64,000 nt of DNA from a virus. This document shows, piece after piece, positions 2,508-48,332 of the stretch (positions are counted from its first letter, which is position 1; each line of letters starts with the position of its first letter). The position numbers were made by a program, and so were the translations under genes. The stretch lies in the IMG/VR virus record IMGVR_UViG_3300033148_006706, positions 64,001 to 128,000 of that record, one strand, 5' to 3'. The notes below the pieces were generated by a model that worked only from the letters and a program-made list of their open reading frames with translations, was not told the origin of the DNA and searched no databases.

Positions 2508-2518
2508 GGGCGTGATGA

Positions 2519-3934: not shown

Positions 3935-3942
3935 GATAACAT

Positions 3943-3950
3943 ACTAATAT
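3943..3950 (+). promoter_or_regulatory. Putative late promoter motif ACTAATAT
   Basis: Intergenic, upstream of the tail fibre gene and its GGGAG RBS. Confidence 0.5.
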
Positions 3951-3978
3951 TATATAATATACAAAGGGAGAAAATTTA

Positions 3979-26293: not shown

Positions 26294-26322
26294 AATATAT
26301 ACTTTTTTTAAAAAAATTTAAA
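26294..26322 (-). promoter_or_regulatory. Putative middle-type promoter TTTAAA-N17-TATATT
   Basis: Upstream of tmk. Confidence 0.5.
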
Positions 26323-27238
26323 CTAAGAAGTCAGGATATCCTCTGACAAAACATATTCTATCTAAACCAAATTCATCTATTATTTCCTGAAATCGCCTTC
26401 TAAAGGATACGCCACTTTTATACTTTGTGTATAGATCGCCTCCTCCGAAATCAAACCCTGATAAAAATATTTTGTCAAAACCTTCATACAATGCCTGTAA
26501 AATCCAAAAATACCCCGTATTACCTTTTCTATCATTATAGTAAAATACATTATTCCCTCTTGTACTATATAAACTAAACTTTTTACTTTTATAATTTTGT
26601 ATTTCTCTAAAAAGTTTCTTATCCAATACTCCAATACGAGTAAATGGCAAATCTTCTTTATATGCATGGTTACACCCCCATAGCTCGCCTTTCCAATTTT
26701 GTATAAAAGAAATATCAGGCTCCTCTGTCCTGGTTACCCCGTTACCTAAAATGAGCACCTTATTAGAGAAATCATTATATATGGTTTCCCCATACAATTT
26801 TACTTCTTCTTGTATAATTCCATCATAATCATTCTCTATAAAATATATATTATCACTAAAATTAAAATCATGAGATAGCTTCTGTAAATCCCGTATCCAG
26901 TTAGCTTTATTCTTCTTTTCGTGATTGGTTCTTCCTAGGTTAATTCCGCAAATATAGATATTCTTATATTCCTCGGTTAATGCATGATAAATGGCAAAAG
27001 AAAATAAATTGAGATTAGAACCATCCGTATTACATAATATATCAAAATTTTTACCAAATTCTCTTTTATACTCCTGCGCTTTAAACAAGCCAAGATTATC
27101 TACAAATATTTTACTAAATTGAATTGATTTATCTAGAAAACGAAAATTGAATCCCCATATTTCCTCTTTCCATTCTTTAACAAATTGTTTAGATTCTTTA
27201 CATAGATTATCGTTGCCGAGAATTAGGATACTTTTCAT
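26318..27238 (-). CDS. Tandem-domain Maf/GT42-like putative nonulosonate transferase (paralog 3)
   Basis: Two copies of ILG(N)...W.xN...IxxxG(F/I)(D/N)xG module; the first is degenerate. Confidence 0.5.
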   Translation of the reverse strand: MKSILILGNDNLCKESKQFVKEWKEEIWGFNFRFLDKSIQFSKIFVDNLGLFKAQEYKREFGKNFDILCNTDGSNLNLFSFAIYHALTEEYKNIYICGINLGRTNHEKKNKANWIRDLQKLSHDFNFSDNIYFIENDYDGIIQEEVKLYGETIYNDFSNKVLILGNGVTRTEEPDISFIQNWKGELWGCNHAYKEDLPFTRIGVLDKKLFREIQNYKSKKFSLYSTRGNNVFYYNDRKGNTGYFWILQALYEGFDKIFLSGFDFGGGDLYTKYKSGVSFRRRFQEIIDEFGLDRICFVRGYPDFLV

Positions 27239-28392
27239 ATTAAAAAATCGGGCTGTTTTCCAATGAATGACATATTCTTAATCCCAAATTCTTTACTAAC
27301 AGATAAAAACTGTTTTTTAAATAGCGCCCCATTTTGTTCACTGGAATTATAAATATTTGAATTATCAAAATCAAATCCTCCTAAAACAATCTCTTCAAAT
27401 TCTTCATAAATAGCCTGTAAAACAAGAAGAATTCCTGTACTCCAATTTCTCTGTTCTTTGAATAGAAAGACTCCCAATTGCTTATTTTCATATTCTTCAA
27501 ATCCATCAAACTTTAAAGTAAATATATCATAATCATAATTATTGTTAAGCTTATATTGAAGCGCCTTATCAACCATATATTTTTCTCTACAGCCAACTGC
27601 TTTAATAGTCCTTACATTTTCCACTTCTCTATATGCTTCATTACATACCCATATCCTATGTCGCCACTTATTTATAAATTTTTTAACTGATGGTTGTAGA
27701 CGAGATTTGCCATTCCCCAATATTAAAACTTTTTCATTTAATACAATATGAGCGTTCTTATTATTTACCTCAAGATGATTTATCCCCTTTAAATACAATT
27801 TTGCATAATAATCTGAAGGCTCATCACTCATAATAAAAGGCTTATGATCCTTCCCTATAAATATTACTTTATCCAGTCCAAGCTCATCTCGTATAAGTCG
27901 CCAATTCCTTACCCATTTCTCCTTATTCTTTATATGATGATTTTGTACATATATATCTTTTCCACCTAGATCAAATCCAATTACATAAATTTTATCATAT
28001 CCTTTTATTATAGCCCTTGCTACCAAGGTACTGCCAGAGTCTTTAATAAATAATCCAGGAATATCAATCATTTCTACACCCGGAAGCGTTTTAGCTTTTG
28101 GATTTTTTCCAAATATGCGATATTTACCCCCGTATCTTTTTTTATATTCTACAATTTCTTTTAATGCCGATATATCGCCAATTATTAAATCTAATCTTGG
28201 AAGCGAACCGTTATAGTATTCTAAATAAGCTGAATTACAGGCCCAAATTTCCCCGCTCCATTTTTGTATAAAATCCTGATGTTCTAATCTTGATATTCCA
28301 TTTCCAACAATAAGCACTTCTTTTATTTTTTTTATAGAATTCTGGTGGCTGTTATTTAAATTTTTATTTTCAATAATTGAAGGATTTTTCAT
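27235..28392 (-). CDS. Tandem-domain Maf/GT42-like putative nonulosonate transferase (paralog 2)
   Basis: VLIVGNGISR...WACN...SG...IYVIGFDLGG module present twice. Confidence 0.55.
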   Translation of the reverse strand: MKNPSIIENKNLNNSHQNSIKKIKEVLIVGNGISRLEHQDFIQKWSGEIWACNSAYLEYYNGSLPRLDLIIGDISALKEIVEYKKRYGGKYRIFGKNPKAKTLPGVEMIDIPGLFIKDSGSTLVARAIIKGYDKIYVIGFDLGGKDIYVQNHHIKNKEKWVRNWRLIRDELGLDKVIFIGKDHKPFIMSDEPSDYYAKLYLKGINHLEVNNKNAHIVLNEKVLILGNGKSRLQPSVKKFINKWRHRIWVCNEAYREVENVRTIKAVGCREKYMVDKALQYKLNNNYDYDIFTLKFDGFEEYENKQLGVFLFKEQRNWSTGILLVLQAIYEEFEEIVLGGFDFDNSNIYNSSEQNGALFKKQFLSVSKEFGIKNMSFIGKQPDFLI

Positions 28393-29501
28393 GCTATATA
28401 TTTTTCTCTATTTAAGAATTTTGGTTGCCCCTCAACAAATTTAATTTTATTTACATTAAACCAGCATCTTATTAAATTCATCTGTTTTCTATACGTTAGC
28501 CCTTCTACCGCCCTGTTCTTATAGATATGATCTCCCCCAAAATCAAAACCACTTAACCATATCATATCATACTCTTCATACAAAGCTTGTACTAAAAGAA
28601 GCATGCCCGTTTTAAAAGAATTAGTATAAAACAGCTTAACATCTTTGTTGACTTTTTCTATAGTATAAACATCATAATCAAGATTATGCTTCTCTTTAAA
28701 CTCAAGCATATCAAAAACTAAATGCGTAAACCTGGTTCCTACTCTATCAATTCTATTAAGATTATTATATTCTCTGTAATATGCATCATTACAAACCCAT
28801 ATTTCTTCTCTCCAATTTTTTATAAATCTTCTATTAAGAGAATTCTCTCTACTTCTTCCATTTCCTAAAATAAGCACGTTATTAGTTCTTTTAACATTCT
28901 CTTCTTGATAACTTTTTACAGGATAATTAACAAAAAAGTTTTCTTTTAAATGATCTTCTCCATTCATATATTTTCTAGCATAACTATTTATAGGCATCTC
29001 ACTTAATATGAAAGGCTTATGATCTATTCCCACAAAATGAATTCTTTCTAATCCAAACACCCTTGCTATTTTTCTCCAATTATCCACCCATTTACTTTTA
29101 TTTCTTCTTTCATGATTTTTTACATATATATCTTTTCCGCCCAGATCAAATCCTACTAAAAATATCTTACCATAATTTTCATATAATGCCTTTACAACAA
29201 GCGTTGACCCGGAATCTTTAATATATCTTTCTGGAATTTCAACTTTTTTTACTTCTGGTATACTTAATGCTTTTGTATTTTTACATAATAATTTATAATT
29301 TAATTTATATCTTTTTTTAGCTCTATAAGCTTCTTTTAATGCATCCTTATCTCCTATTAGAATATCTATTCTTGGAATTTTTTTATCAATCAGGTCTTTA
29401 AAAGCCCAATTGCAAGTCCAAATTTCTCCTTGCCATTTTTGTATAAAATCCTGATGTTCTAATCTTGATATTCCGTTACCTATAATAAGAACTTCTTTCA
29501 C
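28389..29501 (-). CDS. Tandem-domain Maf/GT42-like putative nonulosonate transferase (paralog 1)
   Basis: VLIIGNGISR...WTCN...SG...IFLVGFDLGG module present twice. Confidence 0.55.
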   Translation of the reverse strand: MKEVLIIGNGISRLEHQDFIQKWQGEIWTCNWAFKDLIDKKIPRIDILIGDKDALKEAYRAKKRYKLNYKLLCKNTKALSIPEVKKVEIPERYIKDSGSTLVVKALYENYGKIFLVGFDLGGKDIYVKNHERRNKSKWVDNWRKIARVFGLERIHFVGIDHKPFILSEMPINSYARKYMNGEDHLKENFFVNYPVKSYQEENVKRTNNVLILGNGRSRENSLNRRFIKNWREEIWVCNDAYYREYNNLNRIDRVGTRFTHLVFDMLEFKEKHNLDYDVYTIEKVNKDVKLFYTNSFKTGMLLLVQALYEEYDMIWLSGFDFGGDHIYKNRAVEGLTYRKQMNLIRCWFNVNKIKFVEGQPKFLNREKYIA

Positions 29502-30211
29502 TTAAATTTCTCCTTTAGCAATAATTCAACAATTCTAAAGTCCGTCTTTACATCTATTTCAAAATGGGTATAATAGTCCATTATAAAAAGCCCAACCGGA
29601 TCAGTTAACCTGTTTTTTGATTTAATAATATTACTAATCGTGTTTATATACATAGCCCCGTTTTCCATATAAATGTTATTTTTGTAAAAACGCTTCTCTT
29701 GCCTTAAAGGCCTAGATTTAAAATCATAATTCAAGGGAATAGCCCGAGATTTTTGATATTTATGGGAAAAACTTTCAGTCCATAAAAACCTGTGATTTAG
29801 ATCCGCTACTGATAACATTGAATTGTATGACCCCTTTTCATATTCATCAATCATTTTATTAACATCCTTATAATTAAGCAAAGGATTAGTAGCTTGGACA
29901 AGTATAAAAACGTCTTCATTATTTTCGTATCCTTTTCCCAAATACTCCAATATAGCATCCTCGGTTGTTGAATTATCTTGTGCATTTTTATGTTCCCTAT
30001 CATAAAAGATAATTTTATTAAATTGAAATTTTTTTATTATTAATTTATATTCTTCCGAATCGATTGCAACTATTATTTTATTAACTTTACTTTGCTGTAG
30101 AGCACTTAAAACCCAATATACTAGAGGTCTATGATTAATCTTTTTTATATTCTTATCTTTTATTCCTTTACTGCCACTTCTTATAGGAACAAACGATATT
30201 ATATTATTCAT
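29498..30211 (-). CDS. neuA: Acylneuraminate cytidylyltransferase (CMP-nonulosonate synthetase)
   Basis: VPIRSGSKGIKDKNIK, QATNPL, ENGAMY, EID motifs. Confidence 0.9.
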   Translation of the reverse strand: MNNIISFVPIRSGSKGIKDKNIKKINHRPLVYWVLSALQQSKVNKIIVAIDSEEYKLIIKKFQFNKIIFYDREHKNAQDNSTTEDAILEYLGKGYENNEDVFILVQATNPLLNYKDVNKMIDEYEKGSYNSMLSVADLNHRFLWTESFSHKYQKSRAIPLNYDFKSRPLRQEKRFYKNNIYMENGAMYINTISNIIKSKNRLTDPVGLFIMDYYTHFEIDVKTDFRIVELLLKEKFK

Positions 30212-30225
30212 ATAATATTAGTCAC

Positions 30226-30828
30226 TTAAAAAATATAATCAAATCTTTCTAAATCATCAGCATATAAAGTACTAACTATATCAACAGATTTTTTATCGTA
30301 ATATTCTTTATAATTTTTTCTTCGTGGCGCTCCGAAACTTTTATTAATCTGTTTAGGCTGTGGTATTCCTATTAAATCAAATATGTGGCGTATTTCTTTT
30401 TCAAAGTTTTCAAATCTTGCAATATAATCATAATTTTTACTACCTTTAGGAATTGCAAACCAACGTAACTGCGGTACATAGTGTATTTTATGTAAAGACT
30501 CTTTTAATTGAGTTTGAATAAAATCGTTAAAATCTTTTTTTATAGCACTAAATACTTTATTGTCATTTAAATCTTTTTGAGAAAGTGAACCTCTGTTTGC
30601 CCGTGACCAATACGAAACAAGTCTATCAAAAGGATTTCTTACAATAGTAAACGTAAAGTATTTATCCCATTTTTTGGGGTACGCTTGTATGTATCGAATT
30701 GGGAAGGCATGTCTCCCACCTACTTCTTTTGGATTTATGACCATATTTTCATCAAATAATGCATTTATCGTATGCCCTCCAGTACGAGGAATACTTACAA
30801 AAATCGTCTTGTACTTATCACTTACCAT
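30226..30828 (-). CDS. Sulfotransferase family 2 (carbohydrate sulfotransferase-like)
   Basis: 5'-PSB FVSIPRTGGHT, 3'-PB FTIVRNPFDRLVSYW, HYVPQ, YDYIARFEN; start reassigned to ATG 30828. Confidence 0.8.
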   Translation of the reverse strand: MVSDKYKTIFVSIPRTGGHTINALFDENMVINPKEVGGRHAFPIRYIQAYPKKWDKYFTFTIVRNPFDRLVSYWSRANRGSLSQKDLNDNKVFSAIKKDFNDFIQTQLKESLHKIHYVPQLRWFAIPKGSKNYDYIARFENFEKEIRHIFDLIGIPQPKQINKSFGAPRRKNYKEYYDKKSVDIVSTLYADDLERFDYIF

Positions 30829-30832
30829 ATTA

Positions 30833-31033
30833 TTATACTCTCGTTGTTTGTAATATGAAGAACCCATGCCCATTAGGCCAGCTTTTATAATTATCTTTAT
30901 ATCTACACCCTTGTACACCCCCCCAAGAAATATCATCCCAAAAGATAAATATCTTATCCACATAATCAGTTATCGAATTTATAGACTGCTGGACAAAATC
31001 TTCCCCATAAAGACATCTATATATTGCTATCAA
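30833..31033 (-). pseudogene. N-terminal fragment of a GT-A (GT2-like) glycosyltransferase
   Basis: IAIYRCLYGEDFVQQSINSITDYVDKIFIFWDD resembles the first beta-alpha-beta of GT2, but stops at 66 aa. Confidence 0.45.
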
Positions 31034-31721
31034 AATTCTTAATAAACTCCTTTAATTTTTCAGCATCCCGTATTCTTTCCCATTCTTTCTCTCTATATAA
31101 TGCTTTTACTTTATCTCGTTTTCTTCTCGCCCTTTGATCTCTATATGTGTCATCCAACTCTGACTTACCCACACTGAAATGTAAATGCTCTATATACAGA
31201 TCAGGTATATATACAAGCCTATCTATTCTTTTTGCTAAATCAGTAAGCCAAGTATCGTTATAATCTGCACTAAAGTAGGGAGGTACAAAATATCCTACTG
31301 TTTCTATCCAATTTTTATGAATAAAGCCATGGGTTCCTAACTCCCCACTATCTACAATTCCATCTCTACCGTATACGAATAAAATTTTATCAGGATATTT
31401 TTCAAATTCGCTTTTAACAATTCTATCCCATTCTTTTGTTTTATAAACAAGATCATCTCCTGCATGATGATAAATAGGACCTGTTGCTTTTCTGTAGCAT
31501 TCATTCCACATATTACTAAGTACAATCCTTTCACCAATAATGAATTTTATATTATAATTTTTTTGCAATTCTAGTGCTTTATCTCTTGATCTTTTATCGT
31601 CATTATCAATATAAAAAACAATTTCAACACTATTAGAATCCTCTGCTTTAGAAAATGCTGAATTGCATAATCTTTCCATTCCTGACGGTCTGTTTCTTGT
31701 TGGCACTAGTAAACTAATCAA
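31017..31721 (-). CDS. Glycosyltransferase family 2
   Basis: ISLLVPTRNRP, YIDNDD, GDD motif, DTWL, EHLH. Confidence 0.85.
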   Translation of the reverse strand: MISLLVPTRNRPSGMERLCNSAFSKAEDSNSVEIVFYIDNDDKRSRDKALELQKNYNIKFIIGERIVLSNMWNECYRKATGPIYHHAGDDLVYKTKEWDRIVKSEFEKYPDKILFVYGRDGIVDSGELGTHGFIHKNWIETVGYFVPPYFSADYNDTWLTDLAKRIDRLVYIPDLYIEHLHFSVGKSELDDTYRDQRARRKRDKVKALYREKEWERIRDAEKLKEFIKNFDSNI

Positions 31722-31725
31722 CTTT

Positions 31726-32301
31726 TTACTCTCCTATTCTAATTATTTCCACTCCGGGCTGATCTTTTATATATCTCCAGGGGTCAAGAATACAAGAGCC
31801 TTTTGGAAAAGAATATGTTCCAAATTCTTTATGTCTTGTTCCAATAAAATAGATAGCTGGCTCTTGTAATGGAGGGGGACTTTTATCAATATACGGATCA
31901 TACATTTGAGCATCTATATCTTTTTCCCTTAGTATATTCTTTAAAAGGATAGCGGGGCTACCAACTTCTAAATTAGTCTGTTCTTTAAACGCTTTTCCTA
32001 AAATAATTACGGGCAAATCCAACTGCTCTTTCTTTTCTTTTACTAATTCTGCCAACCATTCAGTTTGTTTTTCTCTGCAAAGCATAATATTTTCAAACCA
32101 ATCGTACGAAAGATTAAGTTTTCTAGAAAGCCATGAAAGAGCTATATTATCACGGGGATGACAATTATGCGAAACAATATTAGATTTTTTCTCTATCCAA
32201 AATAAATCATCATTATTCTGATGATTTGGAAATAACTCTAAATTATACACATCCCCTTCATAATATAATGTTTCAATTTTTTTAATATTCTTTTTTTTCA
32301 T
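31726..32301 (-). CDS. Split-intein C-part (46 aa) fused to C-terminal extein of UDP-glucose/GDP-mannose dehydrogenase
   Basis: Block F GDVYNLEL, block G VSHN|C, then CHPRD...ILGKAFK...YDPY of the dehydrogenase; own AGGAG RBS. Confidence 0.9.
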   Translation of the reverse strand: MKKKNIKKIETLYYEGDVYNLELFPNHQNNDDLFWIEKKSNIVSHNCHPRDNIALSWLSRKLNLSYDWFENIMLCREKQTEWLAELVKEKKEQLDLPVIILGKAFKEQTNLEVGSPAILLKNILREKDIDAQMYDPYIDKSPPPLQEPAIYFIGTRHKEFGTYSFPKGSCILDPWRYIKDQPGVEIIRIGE

Positions 32302-32331
32302 ATTTTAACACTCCTATTAGCTAATCTTCTT

Positions 32332-33459
32332 TTAATTTCTATTATCATAATATAATTTATCCGTTTGTTTTACTTTATCTGCTCGAATAATTTCCATTTT
32401 ACCATTCCTAAATACAGGAATTAAATGATCCTCAGTACAAATAAATTCTTCATCCTGAACAGAGAATTTATACAATTTGCCTTTATATTTTCTTTTAGTT
32501 ACGTCTTTTATTAATTTTTCTTCTTTTTCAGAACAATCGCTATTAATAGATTCTATAAAAAATTTTTTATTTTCTGATGAGTGGAAAATCTCATAGAAAT
32601 CCCCTATAGTAAATATTTCATTATTAACTTTTATTTTTGAATCATATAAAACACATCCTCCACCATCTCCCATTCCGCCCCTCATATATTTATTTGATAT
32701 AATTCTATCAGTTGCAAGTGAAAGAGCCCTAGTTACTTCATCTACATTTGTATTTGGAGTCTTATGACATATCTCCATAACGGTATTCATCATAACTATT
32801 TTTGTCGATATCGCAGTGTTATAAACCACTTTTATAAGCTCTGCATTTTCTATTGTTGTTTCAAATACAGGACGATCATGTAAAGTTTTATAAAAAAGTT
32901 TTACTGTTTCTTTCGCTGCAAAACTATCAGTTCCTAATAATACAAACTCGGGGTTCATAAAATCGGGTATTGTGGTTCCCATAGCTATAAAGAAAGGATT
33001 ATAACATAGATCTATATAAGGAGACATAAACGGACGAATTTCTCTTTCAATAGTCCCTGGTAACACTGTTGAAATAATAACCACAATTTTATGTCTTTTT
33101 ATTTTATTTAATTCCTCTGAAAGTTGTATTACTGATTCTTTTAAGTAACTATAGTCAAAATCTTTTCTTTCATCCGGTAATCTTGTAATTCCTTCATATT
33201 TTTCAGCATGAGGCGTTTGTACAGCAATAAAAATTATATCAGAACGCCCCGCTACATCCTTAATTGGTAATATCTTGATATTACTATTATCGAGTAGCTC
33301 TTGAGCCCCCTCTTCTCTATATGGAATTTTTTTATCTTTTATAATTTCTTTAACTTTCTCGGAAGGATCATATCCCACTACTGAATGGCGCCCAAATTTT
33401 TCTATTGCTAAAGCGCAAGGTAGCCCCAACTTTCCAAGACCTAAAAATCCTATATTCAT
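32332..33459 (-). CDS. ugd: UDP-glucose/GDP-mannose dehydrogenase N-terminal extein (268 aa) fused to split-intein N-part (107 aa)
   Basis: GLGKLG, AVQTP, STVLPGT, YNPFF, AELIKV, GMGDGGG then block A CVLYDSKI and block B CTEDH. Confidence 0.9.
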   Translation of the reverse strand: MNIGFLGLGKLGLPCALAIEKFGRHSVVGYDPSEKVKEIIKDKKIPYREEGAQELLDNSNIKILPIKDVAGRSDIIFIAVQTPHAEKYEGITRLPDERKDFDYSYLKESVIQLSEELNKIKRHKIVVIISTVLPGTIEREIRPFMSPYIDLCYNPFFIAMGTTIPDFMNPEFVLLGTDSFAAKETVKLFYKTLHDRPVFETTIENAELIKVVYNTAISTKIVMMNTVMEICHKTPNTNVDEVTRALSLATDRIISNKYMRGGMGDGGGCVLYDSKIKVNNEIFTIGDFYEIFHSSENKKFFIESINSDCSEKEEKLIKDVTKRKYKGKLYKFSVQDEEFICTEDHLIPVFRNGKMEIIRADKVKQTDKLYYDNRN

Positions 33460-34457
33460 TTGAAAACTCCTTCGTATATTCTTAAATAATCATTCAATAT
33501 TTTTTCATTATTCCAATGCTTCTCCATAAATTCTCTTGAATCCCGCTGAAGTTTCTTTAACAAACTTCTATTTTCATTTAACTCTGTAATTGTAGTAGCT
33601 AAAGAGTGCTTATCTGCCAGCACCCAGGGCAATTCATACAATTCGCACTTTAAGAACTCGGTAAGGTATTGAATCATCCAGTCTTTTAAGTTACACATAA
33701 CTACTTTCCCTTGTGATAGCCCCTCCAATGATGATAAATGATAGCTGCCAGTATAAATATCGTCAATATGAATATCACCTGAGGCTCGTCTTTTTAAACA
33801 CTCATCAAATCGTTCTCCGTAGATAATATCTTTTTCTATAATACCTTTACTTTCTAATTCATTTAATATAGCAGAAACCTCGCTATAACTTTTATAAGCC
33901 CATGTGGATTTCCTCTTTTTTTTAAGTTTTTCCAACGGCTCCTTATTAGATGGGCTATAAGTAACTTTTATTCTTTCATTATTAACTTCCTTGTATTGAA
34001 GCAAAGGGTCGCATATATCAACAACATTACGCACTGGATAAAAATCATCTTTAAGTAAAGACTTCAATCTTACCGCTTGATACTGTGCAATACAAGCTAT
34101 TCTGTCTATTCTTACCCATTTCTTAATAACATTAAACATTTCATTAATTACTTTCTCAGGCTCACCGTGCATCTGGTACACAAACGGTTTATTAATATTG
34201 CTTAGCATTTGCCATCCCTTGCTATTTTTATGTAAAGGAGGCTGATTATGAATGTGTATAATATCTGCCCAGTTAAGATATTCTTTAAATTGTTTTAAAT
34301 CTTCTTTACCTTTACCCCATACAACATCTGGTATTATTTTCATACTACTTAATCGAGATTGAATGCACTTTGATTCTATCCCATTTTTATTTAAAAAATT
34401 ACTTAACCTAACCGGCGCTCCTGCTAATGGTGATCTACAAAGATGCAATATTTTCAT
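33456..34457 (-). CDS. GT-B fold glycosyltransferase (GT4-like)
   Basis: MKILHL, ADIIHIH, MHG, DIHIDD...LEGLSQGKVV. Confidence 0.65.
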   Translation of the reverse strand: MKILHLCRSPLAGAPVRLSNFLNKNGIESKCIQSRLSSMKIIPDVVWGKGKEDLKQFKEYLNWADIIHIHNQPPLHKNSKGWQMLSNINKPFVYQMHGEPEKVINEMFNVIKKWVRIDRIACIAQYQAVRLKSLLKDDFYPVRNVVDICDPLLQYKEVNNERIKVTYSPSNKEPLEKLKKKRKSTWAYKSYSEVSAILNELESKGIIEKDIIYGERFDECLKRRASGDIHIDDIYTGSYHLSSLEGLSQGKVVMCNLKDWMIQYLTEFLKCELYELPWVLADKHSLATTITELNENRSLLKKLQRDSREFMEKHWNNEKILNDYLRIYEGVFK

Positions 34458-35214
34458 CTAGTAGAAACTCCTCATCGTTAAACAATTTAAAGACAACATC
34501 ATTATAATATTTGTCTTTCATTAAATGTAAGTTTTTCCAACTATTGAGATAATCCTTTCTTGAGAACGATAGTTTTCCAACTTTCTTTTTATGCTCGATA
34601 CTCTTAGCGTATTGCGCACTCTCTTCAGCACTTTCAATATAACTCCCATCAAATCCAACATAATATATTTCTTTATATCCCATATACGCTGTAAGAAAAT
34701 AAAACGCTCCCACTACCGAACCTTGTGCCTGTACAATTATATTATCTTTATATTCGGTATTGAAGCTCCCCTTCCGGATATCATTATCATCAATATTATT
34801 TGATTTAAAAAAATATATGTTCTTCAGATTCTTTATCTTTTCATAAAGTGACATAATTATTTCTATATCTAATGGGCTATCATTTCTTTTTTCCTTTTTC
34901 TCAATATGAAATGAAAAGATAGCATGCGGTAGTAATACATATTGAGCTAAATGTAATTTATCTACATTTCTTCTAAGTCCTTGATAATGAAAATTAACAG
35001 CATACTGAACACTCTTACTAGCTGTAAAGATAGATATAGCATCAGTAAGTGTACAAATATCATACTGCCTTTGCCCTTCCAGTTTCTTAATATTCAGCGT
35101 ATCTATAGAAGGGCCGGAGCCAATAAGTAAAGCCTTGTTATTTCGAGGCTTCCTCGGTACTTTTTCTAAAGTAGGCAGAAAAGGCTCTCTTAAGTCATCG
35201 ACTGTTGTTATCAT
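34435..35214 (-). CDS. Maf/GT42-like putative nonulosonate transferase
   Basis: ALLIGSGPSI and MGYKEIYYVGFD motifs of the CstII/Maf fold. Confidence 0.6.
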   Translation of the reverse strand: MITTVDDLREPFLPTLEKVPRKPRNNKALLIGSGPSIDTLNIKKLEGQRQYDICTLTDAISIFTASKSVQYAVNFHYQGLRRNVDKLHLAQYVLLPHAIFSFHIEKKEKRNDSPLDIEIIMSLYEKIKNLKNIYFFKSNNIDDNDIRKGSFNTEYKDNIIVQAQGSVVGAFYFLTAYMGYKEIYYVGFDGSYIESAEESAQYAKSIEHKKKVGKLSFSRKDYLNSWKNLHLMKDKYYNDVVFKLFNDEEFLLDENIASL

Positions 35215-35951
35215 TTCTTCTTACCTGCTCTTCTTAATCGTGCCTCATAATTATAATAATCGGGGTGTTCTATGATTTTTTTTACAATATTATAAATAAA
35301 ATCATGAGTTTTTATCTTTCCTTTTTGTAGTAATTGCCACATATACTTAGCATTAGAATATTGATCATGTGGATCAACACGACCCCGATTTTTTATGTTT
35401 GCTTTATCACGAATTTTCTTAGGCAGATAGTCTGGAAAATATTCTCTATAATCGTTGGGAATAAATAAATCAGGTTTCATATAATAAAAGTCTATTCCAG
35501 TAAACCAAAGTTCTTTTGGATTATATTGTAAAAAATGTTCCATGATAATAGGGCCGTACAGTACGCCTTTTATTTTTTTGCTAAGTTTTGCTATTGTATC
35601 AGCAAGCGTAAATGTAGGAATGGTTTTAGAGTATTTATCAATAAGATTCCTCTGATTTGTTTTCATTCCTAATAATTTCACCCCATATTTATCTCTCCAT
35701 GTTTTTAAATACCCCGCCGGTTGCATTTCACGATTAAATTGTACATTCATACAAAGTATATCGCATCTCTTACCATAATTCTCCACATAAGCAACTTTAT
35801 CTAAAAGAAAAATAGCGCCGTTTGTTCTTATTACGCAATCGAAACTGTCTATTTCTTTACCGAGATATTTCCCTTGTAATATCGGAGACGGGCCAACAAA
35901 TATTACTCGTTTCTCTTCTACCTGCTGCTGTAATAACTTTTCTACGTTCAA
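35211..35951 (-). CDS. GT29-like sialyltransferase
   Basis: Sialylmotif-L-like RVIFVGPSPILQGKYLGKEIDSFDCVIRTN...YGKRCD; S-like G...FTGIDFY; late His (DPHD). Confidence 0.7.
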   Translation of the reverse strand: MNVEKLLQQQVEEKRVIFVGPSPILQGKYLGKEIDSFDCVIRTNGAIFLLDKVAYVENYGKRCDILCMNVQFNREMQPAGYLKTWRDKYGVKLLGMKTNQRNLIDKYSKTIPTFTLADTIAKLSKKIKGVLYGPIIMEHFLQYNPKELWFTGIDFYYMKPDLFIPNDYREYFPDYLPKKIRDKANIKNRGRVDPHDQYSNAKYMWQLLQKGKIKTHDFIYNIVKKIIEHPDYYNYEARLRRAGKKK

Positions 35952-36499
35952 TATTTCTTCCTTATAACACAGGATGTATCTTTAAATATTTCATCTGGAA
36001 ATTTAAGTACTTCATTAAAAGCCTTTCTGACTCCTGGATGATGCTTACTATTACTATAATCATGTAGCGCCAGGAAGCCATTTATTTTTAATTTTGGCCA
36101 CCATAAGCCAATATCTTCCTTTACATTAAGAAAATTATGATTAGCATCGATATAAATAAACATTAAAGAGTTATTTTGAAACATTTTACAAGCTTCTTTA
36201 CTTGTTGTTTTTATTTTATAAATATTAGAATACTTTTTACAAAGTTCATCAAATTGCTTTTCTACTATTTCCATAGGATATTTATATGAAGAAGCGTCAT
36301 TTTTATCATATCCGTTTTTCCAAGCATCAATCGCTATAACCTGATCAAAATTTTTTGCAAATATTTCTGTACTATCTCCTACGTAAGAGCCTATTTCTAC
36401 AACTTTGGCAATAGTAGGATCTATTCGCTTTACATAAGCACATAAATCTTGAAGTCCCGATTTTGCATTTCTAGCTTTTCGTATACTAATTTTTTCCAT
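35948..36499 (-). CDS. Class I SAM-dependent methyltransferase (Methyltransf_24-like)
   Basis: VEIGSYVGDS, IDAW, FIYIDANH, LHDY...GVRKA; start at TAATG overlap. Confidence 0.85.
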   Translation of the reverse strand: MEKISIRKARNAKSGLQDLCAYVKRIDPTIAKVVEIGSYVGDSTEIFAKNFDQVIAIDAWKNGYDKNDASSYKYPMEIVEKQFDELCKKYSNIYKIKTTSKEACKMFQNNSLMFIYIDANHNFLNVKEDIGLWWPKLKINGFLALHDYSNSKHHPGVRKAFNEVLKFPDEIFKDTSCVIRKKY

Positions 36500-37278
36500 T
36501 ATATCTCCATACGATAATAATACATCCAAAGTTCTTCTAATTCATCATACCCTTTATTTAATTTATCCCTAGGGGATTTATCCCAAGGCTTTTGACTTAC
36601 AAAGTGAAGTAGTCTTACTTTTTCGTTAGTTATTCTATACAATAAATCTCTATTTCTACTAAAGAAAATTTTATGTTTCTTACCTTTCCACATTCTCTTC
36701 TCACAATTATATTCTTTCGGAAGAATGTGAATCATCTTTTTAAAGTATTTATTAATAGCTTTTTGATCCGGCATTGAAAATCCCCGCCTTGAAAACTGTA
36801 AAATATTTTTATACAGCTTAAAGTCTAGATAGGGTTTATTTACAACAATGACGCCAGTATTTATTCCGCTTCGTAGATTATCGCTTCCTGATCCATAAGC
36901 CTGCACTCCCGCCAATCTTGCTCCACATCGAAAAAGTGGATTTAAATCTCCTAATGCAATAGTATCCATATCGATAAAAACAACTCTATCACAATCAGTA
37001 TAAGAAAAAATATCAAGTTTGTAATACGTATTTTTTAAACAATCGTCTGTTATTGACATATTAATGTGTTTATAATTTTCAAATCTTGGTTTTACAAACT
37101 CTACATTATCATGTAATAAAGAAGCCATATAACCTTTATTTGAATTAGAAAGCCCCATATCAATAAATCGCCATTTATAATTTAATATTTTGGGACTATT
37201 TTTTACCACCGATTTATAAAAAGCAATAAAGCCGGGCATAAACGCATTATCTATCATTGACAGTAGAATAATTTTCAC
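36499..37278 (-). CDS. Glycosyltransferase family 8
   Basis: YYKL, FIDMD (DxD), INTGV, DQ, EYN, LHF..KPW. Confidence 0.9.
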   Translation of the reverse strand: MKIILLSMIDNAFMPGFIAFYKSVVKNSPKILNYKWRFIDMGLSNSNKGYMASLLHDNVEFVKPRFENYKHINMSITDDCLKNTYYKLDIFSYTDCDRVVFIDMDTIALGDLNPLFRCGARLAGVQAYGSGSDNLRSGINTGVIVVNKPYLDFKLYKNILQFSRRGFSMPDQKAINKYFKKMIHILPKEYNCEKRMWKGKKHKIFFSRNRDLLYRITNEKVRLLHFVSQKPWDKSPRDKLNKGYDELEELWMYYYRMEI

Positions 37279-37280
37279 TC

Positions 37281-37532
37281 TTATATCTCTTCGTATGTCC
37301 TATTAAATATATCGATTTTACAGGGATAGAACTCTCCATTTACTCCTTGTATTACATAATTTCCTTTTTCACATTTCATGTCCCCCTCTAACGTTTTTAT
37401 AACTAAGGCATTACTTGACTCCACAGATAAATGACAATGAGATTTACAAAGTTTTTTTATCTCATCCAAATTATTTCCATCCCATCTTATTGCTTTCACA
37501 ATGATTGGCTTCTTTCTGAATTCTTTCCACAC
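37281..37532 (-). CDS. Conserved phage hypothetical protein
   Basis: FRKKP..V.A..W...TLEGDM...G...GEFYPCK.DIF..TYE family pattern. Confidence 0.7.
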   Translation of the reverse strand: MWKEFRKKPIIVKAIRWDGNNLDEIKKLCKSHCHLSVESSNALVIKTLEGDMKCEKGNYVIQGVNGEFYPCKIDIFNRTYEEI

Positions 37533-37533
37533 T

Positions 37534-38388
37534 TTAATTACCTCCGATCCTTAAATTCTTTTTCTTCTCTTCTTCTCCTGGATATAATACTCTTGGCCCG
37601 TATCCTTTGGATAACCCCCTCTCAATATCTCTTACTCCTTTAACAAGCTCAAATAAACCATTAGGTTCAACTGAAGCTGCTTGATCACTACCCCACAGAT
37701 TATGATTCAACGTTATATGCTTTTCTATCCATGTAACTCCATACGCAAGCACTGCAAATGCATCTTTAATTCCGTAATAATGAGAGCTATAACCGATTTC
37801 TTTTCGAGGATACTTTTCTTTCAACCATTTTACATACTGTAAATATAAATCATCAATAGAAGTAGGATACACACTATTTGTATGCATAATAACATGAGGA
37901 TCTAATATATTAACAGCTTTTTCTATTTCCTCCTCAGTACTCATGCCCGTCGACATTATCCTATAATCAAATAAATCTCTACATAATTCAAGAAGTGCGT
38001 CGTTGGTAATAAGAGCAGATGGAATCTTTACAATATCCACAAATTTCTTCATGAAATAAGCGCTGTCTAAATCCCAAACCGATGCAAACCAGCCTATTCC
38101 ACAACTAAAACAATAATTATCAATTTCAGCATAATTGTCTTCATTAAATTCAATATCTTTTTTATATTGCAAATATGTAATAGGCTTTTGTCTCCAAGGT
38201 ACAATTTTTTCTTTATTTTTCTTATCTTCAGGAACGCAGATATCCGGATTTCTTTTCTGGAACTTTACATAATTACAATCTGCAGCACTAGCAATTGTAA
38301 TAAGTTTTCTAGCACTTTTAATAAACTCTAACTTATCATTTCCAAAGAATGCATTTAAGCCAATCTCAGCTATTATCTTAACTTCCAT
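37534..38388 (-). CDS. neuB: N-acetylneuraminate (nonulosonate) synthase, short form
   Basis: IIAEIG, VKFQKR, KIPSA, STGMS, S.YP, GYSSH, IEKHITL, GSDQ. Confidence 0.9.
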   Translation of the reverse strand: MEVKIIAEIGLNAFFGNDKLEFIKSARKLITIASAADCNYVKFQKRNPDICVPEDKKNKEKIVPWRQKPITYLQYKKDIEFNEDNYAEIDNYCFSCGIGWFASVWDLDSAYFMKKFVDIVKIPSALITNDALLELCRDLFDYRIMSTGMSTEEEIEKAVNILDPHVIMHTNSVYPTSIDDLYLQYVKWLKEKYPRKEIGYSSHYYGIKDAFAVLAYGVTWIEKHITLNHNLWGSDQAASVEPNGLFELVKGVRDIERGLSKGYGPRVLYPGEEEKKKNLRIGGN

Positions 38389-43452: not shown

Positions 43453-44022
43453 TTATTCATAATAATTAAAAAGAACAGGCATTATAAAAGCCATATACCG
43501 GAATTTATTATACTGCTGCGATGATACAAGAATCAAAGGATTAAAAGGTTCCGCAGGTATTTGTACTTCCAGAAAATAACCGGAAGGAATATTCTTTAAA
43601 TAGTCACGTAAATGATCGTATTCGATAGTCCAAGTTTCTTTTGTGTTCCAGTTTTTGGACATTTTAATGATTATGTCCGTGTATATGAGCGGTATCGAGC
43701 TAACAGGATATTGAACTAAATATTGAGTTTGTAATTTATATTTCTGCATCACCCGCTTGTGATCTGGGAAATTAATATTATCAGATTGAATCAGATATTT
43801 ATTTTTTAGATCAATATAATAAATTCCTTCGGGCAAAATTATATCCTCGTCTGTAGTTTCAACAATATACATTCTCTTAGTATCGGTACTTACAAGAGAA
43901 TAACCTGTTGAGAGGATATGACCGAAAAACGGCAACCGAGTGCCTTTCCCGGCAGCTACCTTCAAGTATTTTATCAGCGGTTTTAAATCTTGATGAATAA
44001 AAATCTGATCTTTTTCTTTCAT
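43453..44022 (-). CDS. Partial beta-clamp-like protein
   Basis: STDTKRM ~ ATDGHRL, INFPDHKRV ~ GxFPDYxRV, C-terminal FIMPV ~ xxMPxR; only 189 aa. Confidence 0.5.
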   Translation of the reverse strand: MKEKDQIFIHQDLKPLIKYLKVAAGKGTRLPFFGHILSTGYSLVSTDTKRMYIVETTDEDIILPEGIYYIDLKNKYLIQSDNINFPDHKRVMQKYKLQTQYLVQYPVSSIPLIYTDIIIKMSKNWNTKETWTIEYDHLRDYLKNIPSGYFLEVQIPAEPFNPLILVSSQQYNKFRYMAFIMPVLFNYYE

Positions 44023-44043
44023 TTTGTTATCCTCCGTTTTATT

Positions 44044-44481
44044 CTATCTATCAAATTTAAAATAAACTCTCGGTTCAATCTCCCCAGGACGTCCAACGTC
44101 AAACCCGATGGGCATGATCGGTTCTAATTCATAAGCTCCTAGAAAGCCCTCGAGAAGATTCTCTTGATCGATTTGATCAAGAGTAAGAAAGATTGCCTCT
44201 TCAGCTGGAGATAGGGAAGCGCCAACATTACCTAAGAACCAGAGTTGACCGAAATTGAGATTTTTAACCTCAACTTCAACTCTGTACCATGGGTCATCAG
44301 CAAGAATGATCCATTTTGGAAAACTCTGCCCCCGCAAGGCTTTCCTAAGATCATTTACAGATGGGAATTTATACTTCCCGTTTGTATTGATCGTTAGAGA
44401 TAGAGAGCGAGGGGCTGGAGCTCCTTCTTTCTTTACTCCATCCCAAGAGAATCCAGGGCGGATTGAAAAAGAATATTTCAT
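44044..44481 (-). CDS. Hypothetical early protein (paralog of 45116..45580)
   Basis: SFSIRPGFSWDGVKKEG...DVGRPGEIEPRVYFKF. Confidence 0.6.
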   Translation of the reverse strand: MKYSFSIRPGFSWDGVKKEGAPAPRSLSLTINTNGKYKFPSVNDLRKALRGQSFPKWIILADDPWYRVEVEVKNLNFGQLWFLGNVGASLSPAEEAIFLTLDQIDQENLLEGFLGAYELEPIMPIGFDVGRPGEIEPRVYFKFDR

Positions 44482-44511
44482 TTCTCTCATTTCTCCTTTC
44501 ATTATAATATA

Positions 44512-44578
44512 TTCTGCTTACAACGTAAGCTTACAGCCGTGCCCAGGAATCGAACCTGGGCTAACCACCAGGACGGCT
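44512..44578 (-). ncRNA. Anticodon-less tRNA-like element (acceptor + T-arm + GG linker) followed by hairpin
   Basis: AGCCGT-CCTGGTGGTTA-GCCCAGG-TTCGATT-CCTGGGC-ACGGCT then GCTTAC-GTT-GTAAGC. Confidence 0.7.
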
Positions 44579-44590
44579 AATTCCAATTTG

Positions 44591-44821
44591 TTAGTACTGC
44601 AATTTTTCCAAAAGCCACACATACCCATCCCATTCATAGCGAATAGGATGAACGATAAACCCGTCTTCTCTCGTATGGTTGCGAAGATATCTTTCTACAG
44701 CTCCAGGGCTTCTCTTTATAATTCTGTATGGATGATCTTCCTGCTGCTGCAGAAACCACATGAGATCAATGATCTCATCCTTCTTTCCGTTCTCCCAAAT
44801 TTTTACCACGTCATTTCTCAT
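44591..44821 (-). CDS. Hypothetical early protein
   Basis: GGAGAGG RBS. Confidence 0.55.
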   Translation of the reverse strand: MRNDVVKIWENGKKDEIIDLMWFLQQQEDHPYRIIKRSPGAVERYLRNHTREDGFIVHPIRYEWDGYVWLLEKLQY

Positions 44822-44838
44822 TTCTTCACCTCTCCATT

Positions 44839-45015
44839 TTAATAATCTTCTCCAGGTTCTCTTCTTAGAACCTTTTGAAGTCTAATTTTATATGCTCGAG
44901 GACTTAGAACTTCTAAGTCCTCATAATTTTTGACGAAATCAAAGCACTTTTCCATATTCCCCTCAAAGAGGACATCTGCCCTTTTGAAGGAAACCACAAC
45001 CCACTTTTTCTCCAT
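44839..45015 (-). CDS. Small hypothetical protein (58 aa, below ORF-track cutoff)
   Basis: AAGGAG RBS, MEKKWVVVSFKRADVLFEG...EDY*. Confidence 0.55.
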   Translation of the reverse strand: MEKKWVVVSFKRADVLFEGNMEKCFDFVKNYEDLEVLSPRAYKIRLQKVLRREPGEDY

Positions 45016-45115
45016 CTTTCTCTCCTTTCTTTTTCATAATCTTCTACTTGCCATACGGCGAGCTATATTCCTATAAATATATCACTTAGCGAACTTTTGG
45101 CCCCAGCTTCCCCCT

Positions 45116-45580
45116 CTAAAATTTTAGAAAAAGTGCAGGCTCGGGCCCACCGGGACGCCCCAAATCCAAGCTTACAGGTCGGATATGTATCCCACCGTGA
45201 ATGTCCAAGAACTTGTCGAGAAGATTCATTCGGCTCCCATCATCGGATGTGACATATTCTTGGTTAGCCTGATTCATAACTGAGAGAATTTCTCTCTCGG
45301 CTAAATTGAGAGTTGCTCCAACTTGGCCAAGAAAGAACAATTGATCAAATGTCATATCCCTGATATCACATTTGACTTCGATTCTCACATCTGGGCCATC
45401 ATTAACAATAGTCCAGATAAAGCCATGCCCGTCCAGGGCTTCCCTCATATCTCTTACTGACGAGAAACTCCGCTCTCCGTCAGTGAGAATTATTAAAGTC
45501 ATTGAGTGCGGGTCTGGCACTCCATGCTTTTTTGCCCCATCCCAGAAGAATCTAGGGCGAATTCTAAAAGACCGCTTCAT
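45116..45580 (-). CDS. Hypothetical early protein (paralog of 44044..44481)
   Basis: SFRIRPRFFWDGAKKHG...DLGRPGGPEPALFLKF. Confidence 0.6.
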   Translation of the reverse strand: MKRSFRIRPRFFWDGAKKHGVPDPHSMTLIILTDGERSFSSVRDMREALDGHGFIWTIVNDGPDVRIEVKCDIRDMTFDQLFFLGQVGATLNLAEREILSVMNQANQEYVTSDDGSRMNLLDKFLDIHGGIHIRPVSLDLGRPGGPEPALFLKF

Positions 45581-45798
45581 TTTCTTCCTCCTTTAATAAT
45601 ATTATTAGTCTCCTTTAACAGAGACTCTTCACTATAATGCCCCCCGCAATATAGACAATATAAGTAATCTCCATACCCATATATCTTTATATCAGATAAA
45701 GATATGGGATCGCCAACATTAAGCGCTTCAATTGCACATTTAACATGATAGCGCAAAGGATTCGCTATCACTTCATTATACATAGTACTATTTTTCAT
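45577..45798 (-). CDS. Small zinc-binding-like protein (paralog of 46280..46504)
   Basis: PLRYHVKC...YCLYCGG. Confidence 0.6.
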   Translation of the reverse strand: MKNSTMYNEVIANPLRYHVKCAIEALNVGDPISLSDIKIYGYGDYLYCLYCGGHYSEESLLKETNNIIKGGRK

Positions 45799-45820
45799 TT
45801 TCTTTCTCCATTTAATGATT

Positions 45821-45890
45821 TTCTACTTGCCATACGGCAAGTTACAGCCGTGTCCGGGAATCGAACCCGGGCCTAACCACCAGGACGGCA
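45821..45890 (-). ncRNA. Anticodon-less tRNA-like element followed by hairpin
   Basis: GCCGT-CCTGGTGGTTAG-GCCCGGG-TTCGATT-CCCGGAC-ACGGC then ACTTGCC-GTAT-GGCAAGT. Confidence 0.7.
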
Positions 45891-45896
45891 ATCCCT

Positions 45897-46124
45897 CTAT
45901 TCCTCAAATTGCTCCCATCGGGAGCTATAAATATATGCTCCCGCGCAAGCGAGCATCTGCACGTGTTTATCACAAAACTCGCCGCCATCACCTTGACCCC
46001 ACCACACATGCCAGACGCCTTCAGCGTCTTCCGGATACTCGAGAATCCCTGCAGGGTTCTCTAGCCCGCAATACGGACAAGATTCAGCATCTCTTAAAAT
46101 TTCGTCAATTGTCTTCTTCTTCAT
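45897..46124 (-). CDS. Small CxxC protein
   Basis: CPYC...CDKH; AAGGAG RBS. Confidence 0.5.
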   Translation of the reverse strand: MKKKTIDEILRDAESCPYCGLENPAGILEYPEDAEGVWHVWWGQGDGGEFCDKHVQMLACAGAYIYSSRWEQFEE

Positions 46125-46287
46125 TTTCTTCTTCCTTTAGTCTGTCACAATAGACATTACCATTTTCATCTACTCCCGAGTTACATCCGCCACCAAATGG
46201 CGAACATGACAACCCGGACGACTTCCAAGTGTAATCATAATACGGGCAATCATCACCCGACATAATTTGAGACGGTTCTTTATTCAT
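46105..46287 (-). CDS. Small Cys-rich protein
   Basis: Coupled ORF. Confidence 0.45.
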   Translation of the reverse strand: MNKEPSQIMSGDDCPYYDYTWKSSGLSCSPFGGGCNSGVDENGNVYCDRLKEEENEEEDN

Positions 46288-46504
46288 TTTTCTCTCCTCT
46301 TATAATTTCATTGCTTTCCTTCATTAATGACTCTTCACTATATTGTCCTCCACAATACGGACAATATAATGAACCACCATACTTATATATCTTTATATTA
46401 GATAAAGATATATAATCATCAATGTCAAATGCTTCGATTAAACATTTGACGTGATAGCGCAAAGGATGCGCTACCGCTTCATTGTACATAGCATTGTTTC
46501 TCAT
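46280..46504 (-). CDS. Small zinc-binding-like protein (paralog of 45577..45798)
   Basis: PLRYHVKC...YCPYCGG. Confidence 0.6.
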   Translation of the reverse strand: MRNNAMYNEAVAHPLRYHVKCLIEAFDIDDYISLSNIKIYKYGGSLYCPYCGGQYSEESLMKESNEIIRGEKNE

Positions 46505-46528
46505 TTTCTCTCTCCATATAAAATTTTA

Positions 46529-46726
46529 TTAGCTTGTCCGCCATCCACAATTAAGACAGCGAACAAGGGGATCATCCCCCTCCAATCCGGTTACCTGAAG
46601 CTCCTGCTCTCCGCATTTAGGGCAGGGCTCAATCGGATACCCGGAACTCATTCCAAGTACCCATTCCACACCAACAAGGTTAAAAACCTTGCCGGATATT
46701 TTAATGGTTTTTTCTATTTTCTCCAT
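46529..46726 (-). CDS. Zinc-ribbon protein
   Basis: CPKCG...CLNCGW. Confidence 0.55.
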   Translation of the reverse strand: MEKIEKTIKISGKVFNLVGVEWVLGMSSGYPIEPCPKCGEQELQVTGLEGDDPLVRCLNCGWRTS

Positions 46727-47828: not shown

Positions 47829-47836
47829 TTAAATAT

Positions 47837-48211
47837 TTAAATACAAAACTGATCTACGCAAACCAGCATTGATACTCGATCAGCTAGTTTGCATACCCTA
47901 GCCTTTCCCAACGGCCGACCGCTTGCCTTTATTGCGGTTAGCGTCGGGAAAGACACCAAAACGATATCGACGCTGCTGTCAGCCTCAAGCTCATCAAGAG
48001 CTTGAATGATAGCTGGAGGCAGCTCAAAAGCCATCTCCACATCGACCCAACCTCTAGAATTCTCGATCTTTTTCTCGATTTGCTTGACCGAGAATCTTCT
48101 TACAGTTTCACAGTCGACACGTGACAGCACCGTGCCATCTGTGAACTTGAAATCGTGCGGACTGGAGAAATTTACAACTCGCAGTCCATTCTTCAATTTT
48201 ACTTTTGTCAT
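47837..48211 (-). CDS. Hypothetical protein, first gene of early operon
   Basis: AGGAGG RBS before MTKVKLKNG. Confidence 0.6.
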   Translation of the reverse strand: MTKVKLKNGLRVVNFSSPHDFKFTDGTVLSRVDCETVRRFSVKQIEKKIENSRGWVDVEMAFELPPAIIQALDELEADSSVDIVLVSFPTLTAIKASGRPLGKARVCKLADRVSMLVCVDQFCI

Positions 48212-48242
48212 TTTTCCTCCTAATCTAATCATTTTTTCGTTT

Positions 48243-48332
48243 CCAGCCGCGTGGGATTCGAACCCACCCCGGCTAATGCCGGTTCCCGCATCGGAATTTC
48301 ACCTTGCGGCCGATGCCCCTGTCTGCAGCCAG
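48243..48332 (-). ncRNA. Structured tRNA-like leader RNA (non-canonical cloverleaf)
   Basis: T-arm GTGGG-TTCGAAT-CCCAC; closing helix CTGGCTGC/GCGGCTGG; arms GCATCGG/CCGATGC and CCGGC/GCCGG. Confidence 0.55.

Follow-up and report, generated by a model that had tools for sequence, protein, structure and literature searches.

A probable natural split intein at the catalytic cysteine of a phage nucleotide-sugar dehydrogenase

How can a dehydrogenase be made when its gene is broken in two at the codon of its catalytic cysteine? This question is raised by two adjacent genes on the minus strand of a 64,000-nucleotide stretch of viral DNA (positions 64,001 to 128,000 of the IMG/VR record IMGVR_UViG_3300033148_006706), which we call the window and within which all positions below are counted. 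Gene 1 (33459..32332) encodes the first part of a nucleotide-sugar dehydrogenase and gene 2 (32301..31726) encodes the remainder. The results of our analysis indicated that a natural split class-1 intein very probably divides the phage's only nucleotide-sugar 6-dehydrogenase gene, which resembles those of UDP-glucose dehydrogenases (UGDH), at the catalytic cysteine.

The 375 residues of gene 1 consist of a dehydrogenase part of 268 residues (the N-extein, 32656..33459), which spans the NAD-binding domain and the start of the central domain and ends in GGMGDGGG, and of an N-terminal intein half of 107 residues (IntN, 32335..32655). IntN opens with CVLYDSKI, its first residue (the intein Cys1, Cys269 of gene 1) being encoded at 32655-32653 directly after GDGGG; it contains the block B motif TxxH as TEDH at gene 1 residues 342-345 and ends in DKLYYDNRN. 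The gene 1 stop codon, a TAA at 32334-32332, is followed by a 30-nt spacer (32302..32331) with three additional in-frame stops, and the two read in frame as TAA-aag-aag-att-agc-TAA-TAG-gag-tgt-TAA-aat-ATG, which makes four in-frame stops counting that of gene 1 itself. An AGGAG ribosome-binding site (32315-32311) lies in the spacer, 9 nt upstream of the gene 2 ATG. Gene 2 encodes 191 residues, of which the first 46 form the C-terminal intein half (IntC, 32164..32301), with a MKKKNIKK start, VYNLEL, a DD pair and IVSHN (blocks F and G, the SHN ending at 32164), while the C-extein (31726..32163, 145 residues and a stop codon) starts at Cys+1 (CHPRDN) and contains the remainder of the central domain, then the UDP-binding domain. 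Between the halves, the coding strand showed no sigma-70-like promoter or terminator, and the Rfam search of the window returned no match.

A single sequencing error cannot explain this arrangement, because four in-frame stops, a ribosome-binding site and an ATG stand between the two halves. A separately deposited JGI contig of 3,016 bp (sample 3300033150) is 100% identical over both genes and the spacer, and the split two-gene layout recurs in dozens of contigs of only 35-60% identity; the split is thus no sequencing slip. The two exteins add up to 413 residues (268 + 145), exactly as many as the TIGR03026 profile has positions. An earlier reading of the window, made from its sequence only (the sequence-only reading), had described a 268-residue dehydrogenase part joined to a 107-residue IntN with its Cys1 and block B, a second gene with its own AGGAG and a 46-residue IntC running from the basic start to VSHN before CHPRD, halves that are in frame and separated by four stops, beyond the reach of one sequencing error, and a predicted joined product of 413 residues; all of these coordinates, motifs and lengths held when they were checked.

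We then searched the two halves for intein signatures. The intein N-terminal region profile TIGR01445 matched gene 1 residues 269-347 with 30.6 bits against a curated cut-off of 24.5, and reached 35 bits in a six-frame search of the whole genome, while the Pfam profile PF14890 scored only 21.2 bits against its cut-off of 35.8. A PDB sequence search with IntN retrieved inteins, with KlbA (2jmz, E = 2.7e-6) and the Aes123 PolB1 split intein (9hth, E = 3.9e-6) as the strongest matches and Pab PolII and gp41-1 as weaker ones, that of gp41-1 being marginal (E = 0.05). The single-sequence PDB search with gene 2 gave no match, and a profile of the C-halves was needed. Alignment of 19 N-halves showed that C269, T342, P348, R351 and D367 are invariant and that H345 is present in at least 90% of the sequences, and alignment of 19 C-halves showed the same invariance for G16, V18, Y19, N20, P25, D31, D32, H45, N46 and C47 (Cys+1). 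The window copy is 35-48% identical to its relatives in IntN and 38-53% in IntC. The N-terminal cysteine nucleophile, the block B TxxH and the block G His-Asn followed by Cys+1, as expected of a class-1 intein, are all present, and they are conserved across about 30 relatives.

The association of the two halves was modelled with gene 1 residues 259-375 and gene 2 residues 1-62, each supplied with its own alignment. The predicted docking of IntN and IntC obtained an interaction prediction score from aligned errors (ipSAE) of 0.77, while the best of three controls obtained 0.00; the ipSAE mark is reached by 58 of 80 solved complexes and by 2 of 110 mismatched pairs. The docking runs shared at least 87% of their contacts, with a predicted local distance difference test score (pLDDT) of at least 69 for the partner, and the complex model of the window halves had pLDDT values of 82 and 72. 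Both splice junctions, residues 267-277 of chain 1 and residues 45-47 of chain 2, lie in the predicted interface. The halves are thus predicted to associate, although the score may reflect likeness to solved split-intein complexes rather than prove that the window copy binds. A fold model was obtained with AlphaFold for the contiguous 154-residue homologue from the IMG/VR locus L024 (mean pLDDT of 65, the last 31 residues being poor and without alignment depth), and the top Foldseek matches of this model were only inteins: KlbA (1.7e-6), then Aes123 PolB1, NrdJ-1 and gp41-1, with TM-scores of 0.4-0.48. The split-intein reading, as first proposed, was therefore upheld by the TIGR01445 match, the conserved splicing residues and the predicted docking, all of them evidence from sequence and models.

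The identity of the interrupted enzyme was examined with domain and family profiles. Gene 1 residues 1-275 matched PF03721 (5e-23) and PF00984 (7e-13), the NAD-binding and central domains, and gene 2 matched the UDP-binding domain PF03720 weakly (5.6e-5, 23.9 bits against a cut-off of 30), so that the three domains occur in family order across the two genes. The N-extein covers positions 1-269 of TIGR03026 (147 bits) and the C-extein positions 264-358 (29.5 bits), and the halves therefore meet at one point of the enzyme; individually, they lie under the whole-protein cut-off of 189.8. The N-extein is 62-68% identical to intein-less homologues of 408-434 residues, and these homologues pass TIGR03026 with 208-217 bits. 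The same homologues failed the UDP-glucose dehydrogenase equivalogs AglM (NF041297) and TuaD (NF047673), with 121-191 bits against cut-offs of 670 and 700, respectively; the best of them, P0018, scored 191 (AglM) and 158 (TuaD) bits, and P0085 scored 163 and 121. These profiles place the enzyme, so far as they can, in the nucleotide-sugar dehydrogenase subfamily and no finer. The sequence-only reading had called it a UDP-glucose dehydrogenase; the subfamily stood (TIGR03026), while the UDP-glucose substrate and the 'uronic-acid supply' can at most be supposed, because the equivalog scores are far under their cut-offs.

The same reading had also proposed that the +1 nucleophile of the intein is the active-site cysteine of the enzyme, and this was borne out by alignment. 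In the C-half profile, Cys+1 (profile position 46) aligns with residue 276 of the human UGDH chains and with residue 260 of the Streptococcus enzyme (1dli), and the catalytic cysteine of the GGxCxxxD motif is present as this Cys+1. Cys276 of human UGDH forms covalent thiohemiacetal and thioester intermediates (PMC3265891), and Cys+1 is taken to be the catalytic cysteine because it aligns with this residue.

We infer from these features a route by which class-1 trans-splicing of the two products gives a 413-residue enzyme. The two adjacent genes would be transcribed together and translated apart, the second from its own AGGAG site, and IntN (107 residues) and IntC (46 residues) would associate into a single HINT domain. 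Cys1 would then undergo an N-S acyl shift, Cys+1 would carry out the trans-thioesterification, Asn46 would cyclise and an S-N shift would come last, giving an enzyme joined as GDGGG-CHPRD, whose active-site thiol is the former +1 nucleophile. This enzyme would feed oxidised nucleotide sugar to the neighbouring glycosyltransferases. The earlier proposal that splicing gates this supply is trivially right, as neither half has the whole active site, but a regulatory role was not supported by any data.

Comparison of the window with its relatives showed that the locus belongs to a family. Protein searches of metagenomes returned about 15 N-halves (370-378 residues), about 12 C-halves (185-192 residues) and many intein-less enzymes (408-434 residues), and the split occurs in more than 30 distinct IMG/VR contigs. 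Open reading frame (ORF) analysis of the loci returned by IMG/VR pattern scans (80 and 34 loci) revealed five states at one codon. In the first (a), no intein is present. In the second (b), the commonest among intein-bearing contigs, the N-half is followed by a free-standing ORF of 262-300 residues and then by the C-half, with a gap of 837-900 nt. The third (c), rarer than the endonuclease-bearing state, has a short spacer and no middle ORF; it comprises the window (30 nt), L119 (27 nt), L073 and L086 (21 nt) and L062 (16 nt). The fourth (d) is the contiguous 154-residue mini-intein (L024, identical to P0002), and in the fifth (e) contiguous inteins contain a LAGLIDADG domain (L014, L045, L023 and many of P0241-P0329). 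In state (b), the C-terminal domain of the middle ORF resembles T7 endonuclease I (PF05367, DUF7487, phrog_945, PDB 1m0d), while the middle ORF of L075 (1650-2528) and its relatives L076-L080 and L113-L118 is a different endonuclease (phrog_314, 'homing endonuclease') with a GIY-YIG-looking N-terminus; the split site is therefore occupied by two unrelated nuclease genes. The tree of N-halves showed that the IntN of the LAGLIDADG forms (CFLPDQ..) is a lineage clearly distinct from the split family (CVLPxFK..), and that L119 is sister to the contiguous L024.

The DNA of L024 (3623-4114) and that of L119 (3391-3591) align on either side of the break, and the L024 linker (..IIDDYNSVVEK..) stands in place of the L119 stop, spacer and start. 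Judging by sequence, L024 could be either a re-fusion of the split intein or a pre-fracture state. In L023 and L025 (ORF 1178-4645), P0263, P0266, P0311 and P0324, dehydrogenase homologues of 1,120-1,192 residues were observed, with a LAGLIDADG intein at the catalytic cysteine and, earlier in the central domain (near residues 215-254 of the window protein), a second insertion of about 950 nt, which is probably another intein at a different site.

The spacer of the window was compared with the ends of the endonuclease genes. The endonuclease ORFs of state (b) end in ..KDLxKLGIKI, their TGA overlapping the C-half ATG, and the short-spacer loci L119, L062 and L073 retain ..LGIK[IL]-TGA in that frame. 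The +1 frame of the window spacer reads ..KRRLANRSVKI and then TGA, with the same ATGA overlap at the gene 2 start. Up to 20 of 33 nt match between the window spacer and the endonuclease tails, a level reached by none of 64 other ORF-upstream stretches of the window and by 0.8% of random 33-mers. The spacer is thus a probable, moderately supported relic of the last codons of a lost endonuclease gene. Endonuclease-less loci occur in three separate places of the N-half tree, two of them nested among endonuclease-bearing loci; as the extein signal dominates this tree and it is rooted at its midpoint only, the direction of change was taken from the relics and not from the tree.

In an evolutionary reading, the locus would represent step III ('endonuclease lost') of the gene-breaking model that Dassa, London, Stoddard, Schueler-Furman and Pietrokovski proposed (2009; PMC2677866), within a fractured-gene family common in viral metagenomes. 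In that step the endonuclease gene is lost and the halves are left adjacent, as at the gp41-7 locus (PMC2677866). A wider reading, which we regard as unlikely, is that this one site records a whole running intein life cycle, made up of a LAGLIDADG intein, a mini-intein, a gene fractured by two unrelated nucleases, a nuclease-less split, a probable re-fusion (L024) and an intein-free allele, the nuclease having been lost at least three times with its last codons kept as a ribosome-binding region, and that the split form outlasted its endonuclease in a complete phage because it was co-opted as a post-translational switch on the phage glycan pathway. Such a switch would act by the redox state or the stoichiometry of the halves, the joining taking place at the catalytic thiol.

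The distribution of the intein was then followed outside the record. The phage GenBank collection contained no IntC match and no intein-bearing UGDH, and an IntN-start pattern scan of 185,579 species genomes found no relative within the limits of that pattern, which is weak evidence that the family may be confined to viruses. A search of sequencing runs matched two DNA runs, both sediment metagenomes, with shares of 0.16 and 0.05. The contigs of these two runs included none over 32302-32334 except short low-complexity pieces of unrelated contigs. In sediment run X2, a 151-nt Logan contig (depth 2.4) joins 32125-32166 to 32659-32765 and skips exactly 492 nt, corresponding to IntN with its stop, the spacer and IntC, with 0 and 2 mismatches in the flanks. 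This single low-depth contig suggests a polymorphism for the presence or absence of the intein within the phage lineage. It reads GDGG-N-CHPRD, with an asparagine in place of the Gly-1 of the window, and the divergent intein-less homologues P0019 and P0211 likewise read GDGGNC. An imprecise deletion that left an intein asparagine as a scar was considered for this contig and rejected, an intein-free allele being simpler given the Asn -1 of P0019 and P0211.

Several observations weigh against a functional split intein or against the history proposed for it. Block F position F:4 is usually an aspartate (VYD) in class-1 inteins. The window has VYN instead, with N20 invariant across the family; because it is invariant throughout, VYN appears to be a family trait rather than decay. 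The window intein is the most divergent member of its family, and its IntC departs from nearly invariant positions (Q33L, Y35W, T40S and G41N), departures that could reflect relaxed selection after the loss of the endonuclease. The fold model is that of the homologue L024 and not of the window protein, with moderate confidence only, the argument for an endonuclease relic draws on 33 nt of AT-rich sequence, and the search of sequencing runs found no RNA run containing the stretch.

The divergence of the intein and its departures at some nearly invariant IntC positions would also be expected of a decaying relic, in which splicing competence was lost after deletion of the endonuclease and a dead dehydrogenase is leaving the genome; the near-identical intein-free allele in the sediment metagenome agrees with this, as the lineage can do without the intein. 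However, both frames are fully open and a proper ribosome-binding site is present, all family-invariant residues are kept (including C1, T342, H345, H45, N46 and C+1), the exteins overall are still 57-68% identical to intact homologues with conserved motifs retained, and the gene is the only copy in the genome, inside an intact glycan cluster, so that decay appears distinctly improbable. The very extensive interface predicted by the docking model could instead be explained by assembly without splicing, the intein halves serving as a tight dimerisation module and the enzyme being a non-covalent two-chain protein, and fragmented phage enzymes that assemble in this way are known (PMC3045599), the intein-less fractured nrdA of phage Aeh1 being a comparable case. 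The catalytic cysteine would, however, remain buried at the intein junction as the +1 residue, and the retention of Asn46, His45, Cys1 and TxxH at 35-50% identity is to be expected from selection for splicing chemistry and not from selection for association, which leaves this explanation very improbable indeed. There is next to no chance that the split arose by an error of assembly or sequencing and that the locus is really a contiguous mini-intein like the 154-residue L024: a contiguous form of the family does exist (L024/P0002) and neither sediment run gave read-level cover of the spacer, but four in-frame stops, a ribosome-binding site and an ATG exceed one error, the separately deposited contig is identical there, and four other loci share the short-spacer layout with different sequences.

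Comparison of the split-intein locus with known systems showed that its closest counterparts include the fractured genes with split inteins described by Dassa and colleagues from marine metagenomes (gp41-1, NrdJ-1, IMPDH-1 and especially gp41-7; PMC2677866). As in those loci, the source is phage-like, an IntN of about 100 residues is attached to the N-part and an IntC of about 40 residues to the C-part, and both lie on one strand; the relatives of the window also have a free-standing endonuclease between the halves with its stop overlapping the C-half start. A free-standing homing endonuclease between the halves, which defines a fractured gene for those authors, is present in most relatives and absent from the window, where the 30-nt spacer takes its place. 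The window is in this respect like gp41-7, the halves of which are adjacent without an endonuclease gene, but unlike gp41-7 it has no hairpin upstream of the C-half (z = -0.25). The window differs from the Dassa loci in its host protein, a sugar-nucleotide dehydrogenase, whereas the eight types of host that they list are without exception enzymes of DNA synthesis or repair (PMC2677866), and in its +1 cysteine, which would double as the catalytic thiol of the enzyme. Their endonucleases are of the GIY-YIG or 'Vsr-like' type, whereas most relatives of the window carry the T7 endonuclease I / DUF7487 type. The sequence similarity of gp41-1 to the window intein is marginal, as noted above.

Contiguous inteins are already known in UDP-glucose dehydrogenases, namely the halobacterial 'udp' allele and the InBase 'UDP GD' inteins, for example that of Methanocaldococcus jannaschii (PMC4071816; PMC2874743). 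The host family is the same, and LAGLIDADG inteins occupy exactly the site of the window in L014, L045, L023 and P0241-P0329. These contiguous inteins are single-chain with a nested LAGLIDADG domain (the archaeal 'udp' being compared by host enzyme and not by residue), whereas that of the window is split and without an endonuclease. The Ssp and Npu DnaE inteins are, like that of the window, natural class-1 split inteins with Cys1 and Cys+1, an IntN of about 100 residues and a short IntC, and NpuDnaE was among the structural matches of the L024 model; DnaE shows no detectable sequence similarity to the window intein beyond the fold, and its halves are encoded at distant places in the genome (step IV of the Dassa model), whereas those of the window are 30 nt apart in one operon. 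Among solved structures, Aes123 PolB1 (9hth) and the M. jannaschii KlbA mini-intein (2jmz) were the best matches in sequence and fold (E of about 1e-6), but they are only about 21-23% identical to the window intein and reside in other hosts, Aes123 PolB1 being cysteine-less and KlbA contiguous.

To our knowledge, few natural split inteins exist, and almost all of those described reside in proteins of DNA replication or nucleotide metabolism. No paper in our literature search links a split intein with a nucleotide-sugar dehydrogenase, and the enzyme is a new host protein for a natural split intein, in an architecture that was already known. The novelty claimed for the locus by the sequence-only reading stood for the host, while the locus itself is no one-off, the fractured-gene family being widespread and contiguous UDP-glucose dehydrogenase inteins known. 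The family shows that gene fracturing also extends to phage glycan clusters, where it affects a sugar-nucleotide enzyme. The variety of states found at a single site, including endonuclease-less loci that retain the last codons of the endonuclease, offers a direct test of the gene-breaking model. For protein engineering, the inteins of the family are divergent Cys1/Cys+1 split inteins with an IntC of 40-46 residues. Their identity stays below 50% among themselves and is about 20% to solved inteins, which makes them candidates for orthogonal ligation.

The source of the window is a complete uncultured phage genome (139,843 bp, with direct terminal repeats), its IMG/VR record being rated as 100% complete. 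Among its products are a baseplate wedge protein, tail fibres, rIIA, a family-A DNA polymerase, a helicase and an SbcD-like exonuclease; no GenBank phage has a polymerase more than about 25% identical to this one, and the phage is therefore without a cultured relative. Besides the two halves, no other dehydrogenase match was found anywhere in the complete genome, and the six-frame TIGR01445 search showed that the split intein is its sole intein. The split gene is enclosed in a glycan gene cluster of about 12 kb (26318-38388, minus strand), all genes of which lie on the same strand: a NeuB-type nonulosonate (nonulosonic acid) synthase (1e-55), a GT8 glycosyltransferase, a methyltransferase, a GT29-like sialyltransferase, an MptE-like protein, a GT4-like protein, the split gene itself, a GT2 glycosyltransferase, a sulfotransferase and a CMP-sugar cytidylyltransferase. 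The enzyme of the split gene presumably supplies an oxidised nucleotide sugar to this cluster, and a sulfated, sialic-acid-like glycan pathway encoded by a phage is worth a separate look.

Two other regions of the window were also observed. An island at 44000-48300 has a G+C content of 42%, against 30% for the genome, and encodes two paralogous proteins of about 153 residues (44044-44502 and 45116-45580, both on the minus strand) and a Lys/Glu-rich protein of 375 residues without a Pfam or PHROG match; ARAGORN called a 93-nt 'tRNA-???' at 44534-44626, for which Rfam gives no confirmation, and the island may be a foreign insertion. On the plus strand, an ORF of 2,240 residues (5593-12315), which matches tail-fibre and tail-protein PHROGs in short segments only, is a giant, mostly unannotated tail or host-recognition protein.

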